Position numbers and translations under genes: made by a program
Source: an uncultured Candidatus Saccharibacteria bacterium
GTDB taxonomy: Bacteria; Patescibacteriota; Doudnabacteria; UBA920
Length of the DNA stretch: 43,559 bases
Reading direction: 5' to 3'
Assembly (NCBI GenBank): GCA_964609785.1
Contig: CAZSSN010000001.1
Location: forward strand, 1-43,559
In this document: piece by piece, positions 16,034-16,972 of the stretch
Numbering within the stretch: position 1 is the stretch's first letter
Layout: each line of letters starts with the position of its first letter
Notes under the pieces: model-generated
What the model was told of the DNA's origin: nothing
Database searches by the model: none
What the model saw: only the letters and a program-made list of their open reading frames with translations

Positions 16034-16441
16034 ATGAAACAATATAGTATATTTATTAGTCACTCATGGGCTTATGGTCACAATTATGACAACTTAATTA
16101 AGAAACTCAAATCTGACCCAAGATTTCATTTCAAGGATTACTCTGTCCCTAAAAATGATCCTATACATAATGCACCTAGTTCAATCCAGCTGTCTAACGC
16201 AATTAGAAATCAAATGCGATTTTGTGATGTTATAATTATTTTAGCGGGAGTTTACTCAACTTATAGTACTTGGATAAACAAGGAAATCGCTATTGCAAAA
16301 GGGTTCACAAATCCAAAGCCTATTTTAGCTATTGAACCTTGGGCTAGCGAAAGAACTTCAATAGTAGTTAAGAAGAGTGCTGACAAAATTGTAAAATGGA
16401 ACACTAGTTCGATTGTTTCTGGAATTTATGAATTAGCATAA
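16034..16441 (+). CDS. Minimal TIR-like protein (ThsB / DUF1863-type)
   Basis: 135 aa. YSIFISHSWAYG...DVIIILAG...STWINKEIAIAKG..KPILAI follows the flavodoxin-like TIR pattern with a candidate catalytic Glu in WINKEIAIA. The start at ATG 16034 avoids overlap with the upstream gene. Confidence 0.7.
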   Translation: MKQYSIFISHSWAYGHNYDNLIKKLKSDPRFHFKDYSVPKNDPIHNAPSSIQLSNAIRNQMRFCDVIIILAGVYSTYSTWINKEIAIAKGFTNPKPILAIEPWASERTSIVVKKSADKIVKWNTSSIVSGIYELA

Positions 16442-16444
16442 AAA

Positions 16445-16972
16445 ATGGAAAAAGAAGATGTTGAAAAAATGCTTTTTGTATCGACAGGAGAAAAGTACGG
16501 AGATAAATATGTTGAACATCTCCTAGATCAATACAAGATTTATATAAACGCGACAGAGAAGATTAGCGATCGAAGACAAAAAACTAATGAATTTTTTTTG
16601 GGTTTGAACACCGCTCTTGTGGCGTTGCTAGGTTTTGTCGCAACCAAAACTATTCAGTCAGAAATAAACTTAATATTAGGGTTGTCTTCTATTGCTGGAA
16701 TTACTGTATGCTATTTGTGGTATAGGATTATAGCGTCATATAAAGGATTAAACAGTGCGAAATTTAAGGTTATCCATGCAATTGAATCAAGATTACCATT
16801 GGCTTTGTATGATACCGAGTGGGAAATGCTAGGTCGAGGAAAAGATAAAACTAAGTATTGGCCGTTTAGTCATATAGAACTTTATGTACCTAAAATTTTT
16901 ATAATAATTTATACTTTTATTATTCTCTCGCTAGTACCATGGAAACTCATTCTGTTATTATTGCCTTGTTAA
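16445..16972 (+). CDS. Small 3-TM membrane protein (candidate pore-forming effector, SLATT-like organisation)
   Basis: 175 aa. A soluble N-terminal helix (..ISDRRQKTNEFF) is followed by two adjacent TM helices, an amphipathic segment and a C-terminal TM. It starts 3 nt after the TIR gene. Confidence 0.6.
   Translation: MEKEDVEKMLFVSTGEKYGDKYVEHLLDQYKIYINATEKISDRRQKTNEFFLGLNTALVALLGFVATKTIQSEINLILGLSSIAGITVCYLWYRIIASYKGLNSAKFKVIHAIESRLPLALYDTEWEMLGRGKDKTKYWPFSHIELYVPKIFIIIYTFIILSLVPWKLILLLLPC

Follow-up and report, generated by a model that had tools for sequence, protein, structure and literature searches.

A candidate Thoeris-type module in a Patescibacteria contig: a ThsB-type TIR protein paired with a membrane protein of the 8xMP family

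The Thoeris systems of anti-phage defense have grown from four to eleven verified types, and about 18 further effector classes have been predicted. In the survey of Yirmiya et al. (bioRxiv 10.64898/2025.12.03.692087, December 2025), ~600 million proteins were scanned, 29 putative Thoeris types were annotated, and types V to XI were verified. The eleven validated effector types are SIR2-SLOG, Macro-TM, SLOG, caspase, DUF2270, DUF6650, SLATT, CMP hydrolase, TIR-SLOG, ion channel and HIT. Among the predicted classes is one named "3TM", which accompanies at least 100 TIR rows in the portion of Table S1 of that survey covered here, and which is kept distinct there from the class "SLATT - Type VII". 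Here we describe a gene pair that corresponds to this configuration. It lies in a stretch of 43,559 nucleotides (nt) from an uncultured Candidatus Saccharibacteria bacterium (GTDB lineage Patescibacteriota; Doudnabacteria; UBA920; GenBank assembly GCA_964609785.1, contig CAZSSN010000001.1, positions 1 to 43,559), and this whole stretch is referred to below as the window. In the pair, a gene for a small ThsB-type TIR protein is directly followed by a gene for a protein with three transmembrane (TM) helices, which belongs to Pfam family PF24838.

With a probability of roughly two in three, we read the pair as a Thoeris-type anti-phage signaling module that has a membrane effector and acts by abortive infection. 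The pair is a genuine and strongly conserved module. It is at the same time a new member of an already predicted configuration, and its novelty is limited because TIR plus 3TM is present in the portion of Table S1 considered; the initial annotation of this DNA, made from the sequence alone, had called the novelty uncertain, and rightly so. The 8xMP family itself falls outside the eleven validated effector types and is matched by no PADLOC or NCBIfam model.

The TIR protein and its membrane partner

The initial annotation had placed a TIR open reading frame (ORF) of 135 amino acids (aa) 3 nt ahead of a 175-aa ORF, and both were recovered there, on the forward strand. They are genuine genes and not chance ORFs, since a word-indexed search returned 2,560 homologs for the TIR query and 541 for the membrane protein query, with the best 120 in each case at ~70-90% identity. 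A Thoeris system is recognized by a ThsB-type TIR protein with a catalytic glutamate and by an effector gene in the TIR operon that is conserved beside the TIR gene. The first of these was found in the window TIR. The protein matched Pfam ThsB_TIR PF08937 (E 2.6e-16; 60.3 bits at a cut-off of 21.2), PADLOC ThsB models (best E 3.8e-9) and phrog_6988 (E 3e-35). Its AlphaFold2 (AF2) model, with a predicted local distance difference test score (pLDDT) of 88.5 and a predicted template-modeling score of 0.85, had ThsB-type TIRs as its top PDB neighbors, namely 8wcf (EcThsB), 8fz9 (B. cereus TIR; template-modeling score 0.75-0.77), 8v6t, 9b7d and 6lhy. The glutamate within WINKEIAIA, earlier put forward as a candidate catalytic residue, is E84. 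An alignment that takes in B. cereus ThsB together with type IV, VII and VIII TIRs has five invariant columns; E84 occupies one of them and coincides there with the known catalytic position (the Glu of WVRYEIM in B. cereus ThsB and of WIDAEIR in EcTIR). Both the ThsB-type assignment and the catalytic residue proposed in the initial annotation are therefore sustained by profile, alignment and fold. Identities of the window TIR were 56% with EcTIR of E. coli 328 (type IV Thoeris), 43% with the verified Pseudohongiella TIR of type VII, and 32-35% with TIRs of type VIII. Plasmid relatives of a type VII TIR were inspected as well and were found to be pairs of a TIR with a caspase.

The second protein is a clear member of PF24838, named by Pfam "Octameric membrane protein family (8xMP)". 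The match (E 9.2e-43; 145.8 bits at a gathering threshold of 30) covers positions 1-133 of the 136 in the model and no other Pfam family matched at E<=1. Many proteins belong to 8xMP: exhaustive searching gave 2,864 cluster representatives (50% identity) at E<=1e-3 and 1,576 at E<=1e-10, and the 8xMP profile was matched by all of the 102 diverse relatives (30-60% identity) that served as our conservation set. Hydrophobic segments were located at about 48-66, 75-96 and 147-170, and the AF2 model consists of a long helical hairpin (14-68 and 71-116) followed by a C-terminal helix (144-163), in agreement with the N-terminal helix, two adjacent TM helices and C-terminal TM helix described earlier. 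Across the family, Lys plus Arg residues number 2.9 ahead of TM1, 0.7 in the loop between TM1 and TM2, and 3.4 past TM2. By the positive-inside rule this distribution points to an N-in topology, and residues 1-47 and 97-146 would therefore both be cytoplasmic.

Residues Y30, E114 and E125 were invariant in the conservation set, and R43, R44, N48, W92, Y99, K106, L117, P118, W126, E145 and P149 were near-invariant. Almost all of these positions fall within the two predicted cytoplasmic segments, which together comprise ~100 residues. A helical hairpin turning at residues 69-70 would put Y30 opposite K106-E114, and R43 and R44 opposite Y99.

Searches outside Pfam gave little for the membrane protein. 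NCBIfam yielded a chance-level match alone (E 0.14), no relative was present in the PDB by sequence or by profile, and a fold search with the model reached no significance, with a best E of 1.7 in the PDB and of 0.31 in the viral collection BFVD. Literature searches on 8xMP, octameric membrane protein and PF24838 turned up nothing relevant. The initial annotation had seen no recognizable nucleotide-sensor domain, and the profile and fold searches likewise found none. PF10028 (DUF2270, the family of ThsF) was absent from the matches of the window protein at E<=1 and from the 25 families shown for the 102 relatives. Among the longer 8xMP relatives checked, no TIR-8xMP fusion was found; one was a transposase fusion or an artifact. 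Of note, a subset of close relatives ~263 aa long (P0003, P0009, P0033, P0048, P0058 and the gene at L013 6001-6792) has a conserved C-terminal extension of ~90 aa, which apparently consists of two more hydrophobic helices and a charged loop.

The organization of the membrane protein had also been likened to that of SLATT-type effectors, and this raises the alternative of a plain type VII Thoeris system, in which 8xMP would be a very divergent SLATT protein responding to canonical cyclic ADP-ribose (cADPR). The overall architecture (a helix at the N-terminus, then a hairpin of two TM helices and a helical C-terminal portion) would suit this explanation, as would a weak SLATT_1 match in two of the 102 relatives (E 0.037). 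In addition, the verified Pseudohongiella TIR belongs to the same TIR cluster as the window TIR, and its subclade also bears "3TM" labels in the part of Table S1 examined. However, none of the SLATT families (SLATT_1-6) matched the window protein at E<=1, compared with 146 bits for 8xMP, and 8xMP was matched by every relative scanned. Yirmiya et al. moreover keep the two effector classes apart in those rows of the table, the window TIR is nearer to EcTIR than to the type VII TIR, and 8xMP genes co-occur with caspases, which are not activated by cADPR (see below). At the level of HMM searches we therefore rejected a SLATT identity for the membrane protein, and we consider a type VII system unlikely. 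A gene adjoining SMODS at locus L005 gave no SLATT match either.

Conservation of the gene pair and its candidate signal

Loci were collected from exact-protein look-ups, one genome scan made with an alignment of close 8xMP relatives, plasmid searches and IMG/VR, and after duplicates had been collapsed 36 distinct 8xMP loci were available. In 30 of these, the gene directly upstream, in the same orientation, encodes a TIR protein. Where the spacing was checked, the two genes overlap slightly or are 0-4 nt apart, and in Clostridium perfringens the gap reaches 23 nt. The hosts comprise Patescibacteria, Nitrosomonas (Proteobacteria), Gammaproteobacteria, Bacteroidota, Leptospiraceae, Cyanobacteria, Clostridia and haloarchaea. 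The pair also occurs on plasmids of Synechococcus, C. perfringens, Polaromonas, Novosphingobium and the archaeon Halorubrum, with effector identities down to 30%. 8xMP thus represents a candidate effector gene in the TIR operon, conserved beside the TIR gene. The surrounding genes, which include restriction-modification genes, Mrr-STAND, DpnI, zeta toxin, SMODS, PIN, HEPN and an IetA-like ATPase, are typical of defense islands and mobile elements.

Comparison with the survey of Yirmiya et al. connects these loci to the "3TM" class. Twelve TIRs with this label in Table S1 were compared and found to be 40-88% identical to the window TIR, and the nearest ISHSW-type TIRs (the kind found in the window, see below) among those listed reached 78-88%. 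In a Ca. Azambacteria locus, the gene directly upstream of that for the 8xMP protein P0069 encodes P0165, a protein with 100% identity to one Table S1 entry, ga0209542_10000011137. Because of this identity, and as far as the covered rows of the table go, the "3TM" class corresponds at the sequence level to the 8xMP family, and the window pair fits the putative TIR plus 3TM configuration both by its TIR cluster and by its neighbor family.

The TIR proteins linked to 8xMP are of two unrelated kinds: the "ISHSW" kind, to which the window TIR belongs, and a kind that shares 39-48% identity with PsTIR from Pseudomonas sp. 1-7. The ISHSW kind occurs alone in 10 loci, the PsTIR-like kind alone in 11, and both stand in tandem in 8. 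Near-identical 8xMP proteins (69-86% identity) are paired with TIRs of the first kind, of the second kind, or of both. At a Nitrosomonas locus, for example, 8xMP is 81% identical to that of the window and a gene for a DUF2188 protein takes the same position as in the window, with a TIR of the PsTIR-like kind.

This exchange of partners bears on the identity of the signal. Rousset et al. (2025) purified N7-cADPR from infected cells expressing EcTIR of type IV Thoeris and solved it by nuclear magnetic resonance. The caspase effector was activated via both EcTIR and PsTIR and not by cADPR or glycocyclic ADP-ribose (gcADPR) isomers, so that the two type IV TIR families supply N7-cADPR interchangeably (Rousset et al. 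2025). It is these two families that precede 8xMP genes, and, as near-identical 8xMPs appear to work with either, both should make one ligand. In addition, two independent operons hold a type IV caspase together with 8xMP and two TIRs. For these reasons N7-cADPR is our first candidate for the signal of the window system, held at a little under even confidence; canonical cADPR is a distinctly weaker candidate, and what is left falls to other molecules. The same logic of co-occurrence was applied to ThsH and ThsI by Yirmiya et al. (10.64898/2025.12.03.692087), who also found that the type VII TIR mentioned above makes cADPR. That makers of cADPR are found within the same TIR cluster tempers the preference for N7-cADPR.

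The two operons that contain a caspase, L013 3557-6792 in Paceibacteria and L008 2522-4835 on a plasmid of C. perfringens, have the appearance of naturally occurring Thoeris systems with two effectors. In the first, the order is LexA-like gene, PsTIR-like gene, Peptidase_C14 gene (E 2.8e-21), ISHSW-type TIR gene and 8xMP gene, with gaps of only 3-4 nt from the PsTIR-like gene onward, and its TIR and 8xMP proteins are 83% and 86% identical to those of the window. In the second, the order is caspase-TIR-8xMP-TIR.

In the mechanism that we favor, infection would cause the TIR protein, by means of Glu84, to turn NAD+ into a messenger of the cyclic ADP-ribose type, of which N7-cADPR would be the likeliest form and canonical cADPR the main alternative. 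The 8xMP protomers would be arranged as an octameric ring, as the Pfam family description has it, and the messenger would bind to their cytoplasmic face, formed by the N-terminal helix and the TM2-TM3 segment, where invariant Arg, Lys, Glu, Tyr and Trp residues are plentiful. Binding would open or rearrange the ring, the membrane would be depolarized or permeabilized, and the infected cell would halt its growth or die ahead of phage release. Expression of the module is probably tied to a LexA/CI-like repressor, because the module sits downstream of the gene for it. The initial annotation had likewise proposed a signal producer with a membrane effector. As far as sequence and context evidence reach, the TIR cluster and the pairing across phyla support this proposal. 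Two of its details did not stand, namely the likeness to SLATT and the view that the soluble sensing region is very small, since two cytoplasmic segments hold nearly all invariant residues.

Several observations weigh against this mechanism. Six of the 36 8xMP genes have no adjoining small TIR gene and are orphans or stand beside STAND NTPases. The membrane protein has no model in PADLOC-DB v2 and no recognized ligand-binding domain, and its AF2 monomer is of only moderate quality (pLDDT 75). A palindrome search upstream of the gene for the LexA-like repressor found no operator motif. The broad cluster that holds the window TIR also contains, in the part of Table S1 covered, the type VII and VIII TIRs that make cADPR. 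Finally, in the work of Yirmiya et al. (10.64898/2025.12.03.692087), no "3TM" system was among the 30 operons tested, and none of the newly tested TIRs, which include no 8xMP-linked one, made N7-cADPR; the class is not discussed in the main text, and the authors caution that the TIR in unverified types may be an NAD+-depleting effector.

This last caution leads to a reading with the roles reversed, in which 8xMP would act as sensor or anchor at an envelope or membrane perturbed by phage and would activate the TIR as the NAD+-depleting effector, with no diffusible signal. It would also explain the lack of a recognized nucleotide-binding domain in 8xMP and the fact that some 8xMP genes are found beside STAND NTPase sensors instead of small TIRs. 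On the other hand, the cluster of the window TIR includes ThsBs of types IV, VII and VIII that are proven to make signals, and the pairing of near-identical 8xMPs with two unrelated TIR families, or with two TIRs at once, fits several sensors converging on one effector, as in Thoeris. The presence of a caspase effector in the same operon at two loci and the orientation of the conserved 8xMP residues, which face the cytoplasm and not the outside, also argue against it. Altogether, we consider a reversal of roles improbable and retain the view of the TIR protein as signal producer and 8xMP as effector.

As for the STAND neighbors, some distant 8xMP genes adjoin genes for large STAND NTPases and no small TIR gene, as at L034 6507-8975 and L041 31-3678; one of these partners is DUF4062-nSTAND1-LapD_MoxY_N and the other NB-ARC-WD40. 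Because of these neighbors, the data suggest that the 8xMP effector is also employed by other types of sensor.

The wider module and its carrier element

The pair is part of a larger co-directional gene cluster on a phage-like backbone (Table 1), both of which the initial annotation had missed. From the repressor gene on, the cluster's genes stand apart by gaps of 5, 10, 3 and 15 nt and joined by one 11-nt overlap.

Table 1. Coordinates of the gene pair, the surrounding cluster and the carrier backbone in the window.
Feature	Position	Strand	Description
Carrier backbone	9875..15034	-	Integrase, terminases, methyltransferase and 135-aa gene
Serine integrase	9875-11200	-	Pfam/PHROG
Large terminase (TerL)	11272-12834	-	Pfam/PHROG
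Small terminase (TerS)	12773-13276	-	Pfam/PHROG
ParB-N6/N4 DNA methyltransferase	13176-14459	-	Pfam/PHROG
135-aa gene without assigned function	14627-15034	-	
LexA/CI-like S24 self-cleaving repressor	15122..15772	+	216 aa; Peptidase_S24 (E 9e-20) and helix-turn-helix
DUF2188 gene	15778..16023	+	81 aa, directly upstream of TIR; PF09954 (E 8.5e-19); PADLOC candidate PDC-S16 (E 8e-17)
ThsB-type TIR gene	16034..16441	+	ATG start, 135 aa plus stop; predicted signal synthase; catalytic Glu is E84
Three-TM 8xMP protein gene	16445..16972	+	175 aa and a stop codon; starts 3 nt past the end of the TIR gene; predicted signal-gated membrane effector
Gene without assigned function	16988..18076	+	362 aa, weak zinc-ribbon signals, 15 nt after 8xMP
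Gene without assigned function	18066..18638	+	190 aa, 11-nt overlap with previous gene
Terminator-like stem-loop and T run	18897..18917	+	Consensus scan only; likely end of the co-directional cluster

The LexA-like protein probably either controls transcription of the module or serves the mobile element as its repressor. It scored 83 bits with TIGR00498 (lexA), under the cut-off of 111, and also matched phrog_4 ("transcriptional repressor"). When aligned to the canonical LexA of the window, it keeps the dyad Ser (GPSM) and Lys (IKRY) and a Cys-Gly at the cleavage position. The canonical LexA (LexA_DNA_bind and Peptidase_S24) is encoded 16 kb away, at 31800-32423, and as the two proteins are only 32% identical, this small genome has two S24 repressors. 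A LexA-like repressor gene adjoins the module in 13 of the 36 loci, and in 13 of the 23 with an 8xMP identity of 66% or more. At the chromosomal loci L044/45 it stands beside the module without a phage-like backbone, and in L042/43 and the Azambacteria locus it is divergent. The Azambacteria gene (L001 5211-7406) encodes an unusual fusion of LexA_DNA_bind, Peptidase_S24 and an N6_N4 methyltransferase, is divergent from the TIR-8xMP pair and adjoins a gene for a BsaWI-like restriction enzyme. A promoter scan gave hits no more numerous than in shuffled sequence.

In 6 of the 36 loci the DUF2188 gene directly precedes the TIR gene or genes, in one of them with the swapped TIR family; besides the window, this position was seen in L004-6, L017, L022, L026 and L042. 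Its product could be an accessory component or a second putative effector, and Yirmiya et al. (10.64898/2025.12.03.692087) count DUF2188 itself among the putative Thoeris effectors. The LexA-like repressor and sometimes DUF2188 thus travel with the TIR-8xMP module. The two genes downstream of 8xMP were set aside as system components because they are not conserved with the module. The 362-aa protein had no family above threshold and was found in the window alone among all loci, and the 190-aa protein had no family match and a homolog downstream of 8xMP in L014 only. A link to Pycsar transmembrane effectors (Liu-DS6) was also set aside: the window has no cyclase, and the paper on that system reports no cross-activation between TIR and PycTM.

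The backbone genes matched phrog_95 (1e-61), phrog_38 (2.4e-78), phrog_4044 (1e-9) and phrog_498 (1.6e-83). A backbone with TerL and the ParB-methylase flanks TIR-8xMP in 12 loci of several lineages, including one IMG/VR contig in which host division genes come directly after the 8xMP gene. The region 9875-18638 is a compact integrative element that carries the module as cargo, and it resembles a satellite or reduced prophage because TerL is followed in the window by neither a portal nor a capsid gene. The recurrent backbone may represent a family of phage-satellite-like elements in Patescibacteria. The GC content is 33-36% over 2-18 kb of the window and 39-40% elsewhere. Host genes of the window share 90%-identity clusters with proteins of "Patescibacteria group bacterium", and the window TIR and 8xMP proteins are singletons in their own clusters at that level. 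Look-ups of the flanking host genes for an empty site in sister strains returned no exact record.

A carrier of this kind invites a further explanation, in which the three-TM protein would be unrelated cargo, a holin or superinfection-exclusion protein of the prophage or satellite, and the TIR protein would stand alone. Genes for an integrase, TerL, TerS and a CI-like repressor do occur in the element, there is a PHROG for the TIR family, and a weak match to Phage_holin_5_2 was seen in 3 of the 102 8xMP relatives (E 0.005). The adjacency of the two genes is nevertheless kept where no phage-like backbone is present, on the cyanobacterial, Clostridium, Polaromonas, Novosphingobium and haloarchaeal plasmids and at L044/45. 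No endolysin gene adjoins 8xMP, the 8xMP protein has no PHROG match, and each of two viral collections gave one 8xMP match. We therefore rejected a holin identity, a family that the initial annotation had named as a possible alternative, and regard unrelated cargo as very unlikely compared with a two-gene defense module.

Elsewhere in the window, a five-gene cluster on the reverse strand (2442-8888) has a low GC content like that of the neighboring element. It encodes an IetA-like AAA ATPase (PADLOC IetA, E 3e-30), 231-aa and 546-aa proteins without known function, a protein of 835 aa whose N-terminal domain is Hsp70-like, and a GrpE-like protein. This cluster may be a second, undescribed conflict system.

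Significance and comparison with known systems

These results make the "3TM" class tractable, as it now has a family name (PF24838, with ~2,900 clusters at 50% identity), a predicted topology and invariant cytoplasmic residues to mutate. They also offer a specific ligand hypothesis, namely N7-cADPR as the trigger of 8xMP, which can be assayed with the existing PsCaspase reporter. If true, cells would be killed in two quite dissimilar ways, by a protease and by a membrane ring, on one and the same TIR signal. In addition, genes for TIR-based immunity are documented in the largely uncultured Patescibacteria, on a small mobile element with its own LexA-like repressor. Taking all strands together, 8xMP might be a second, membrane-pore class of effector for N7-cADPR, interchangeable with or additive to the caspase, borne by satellites and gated by a RecA-responsive repressor. 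The module would then be a Thoeris system under SOS-type control, carried in Patescibacteria as immunity-region cargo by an integrative terminase element without capsid genes, and spreading between phyla. As a whole this combined proposal is tentative and less likely than not.

Among the verified systems, type IV Thoeris (TIR plus the caspase-like ThsE, with N7-cADPR) uses the same TIR families as those that precede 8xMP. Its effector is a protease, whereas that of the window would be a three-TM membrane protein; no Peptidase_C14 caspase is encoded in the window, and one is present in the relatives L013 and L008. Type VII Thoeris (TIR plus the SLATT protein ThsH, with cADPR) and the SLATT proteins of the cyclic-oligonucleotide-based anti-phage signaling systems (CBASS) resemble the window pair in having a two-TM hairpin protein, in type VII beside a TIR of the same cluster. 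However, 8xMP lacks a significant SLATT match and adds a third, C-terminal TM helix, and Yirmiya et al. list it as a class of its own. In type V Thoeris (TIR plus ThsF/DUF2270, with 3'cADPR), ThsF is likewise small, has three TM helices and kills via the membrane. ThsF has been modeled as a homo-oligomeric ring with ligand pockets between the protomers (Yirmiya et al., 10.64898/2025.12.03.692087). The effector family is nevertheless another one, as 8xMP does not match PF10028, the TIR belongs to another clade, and the signal is probably different too.

A more distant parallel is found outside Thoeris. In phage lambda, rexA and rexB lie downstream of cI, so that an S24 repressor is followed by a co-directional abortive-infection module with a small polytopic membrane effector. 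The window would share with this arrangement a self-cleaving S24 repressor upstream of the module on a temperate element. The analogy is one of layout: the sensor and effector proteins are unrelated, lambda has no TIR signaling, and the repressor gene is divergent in some of the 8xMP relatives.

The closest system remains the putative TIR plus 3TM configuration in Table S1 and Fig. 1C of the Yirmiya survey, which, in the rows covered, is the same two-gene unit as the window pair. For "3TM", that paper offers no family name, structure, signal or experiment. To this class we have added the link to PF24838, the topology and conserved residues of the membrane protein, its LexA-like and DUF2188 companions, and its co-occurrence with caspases.

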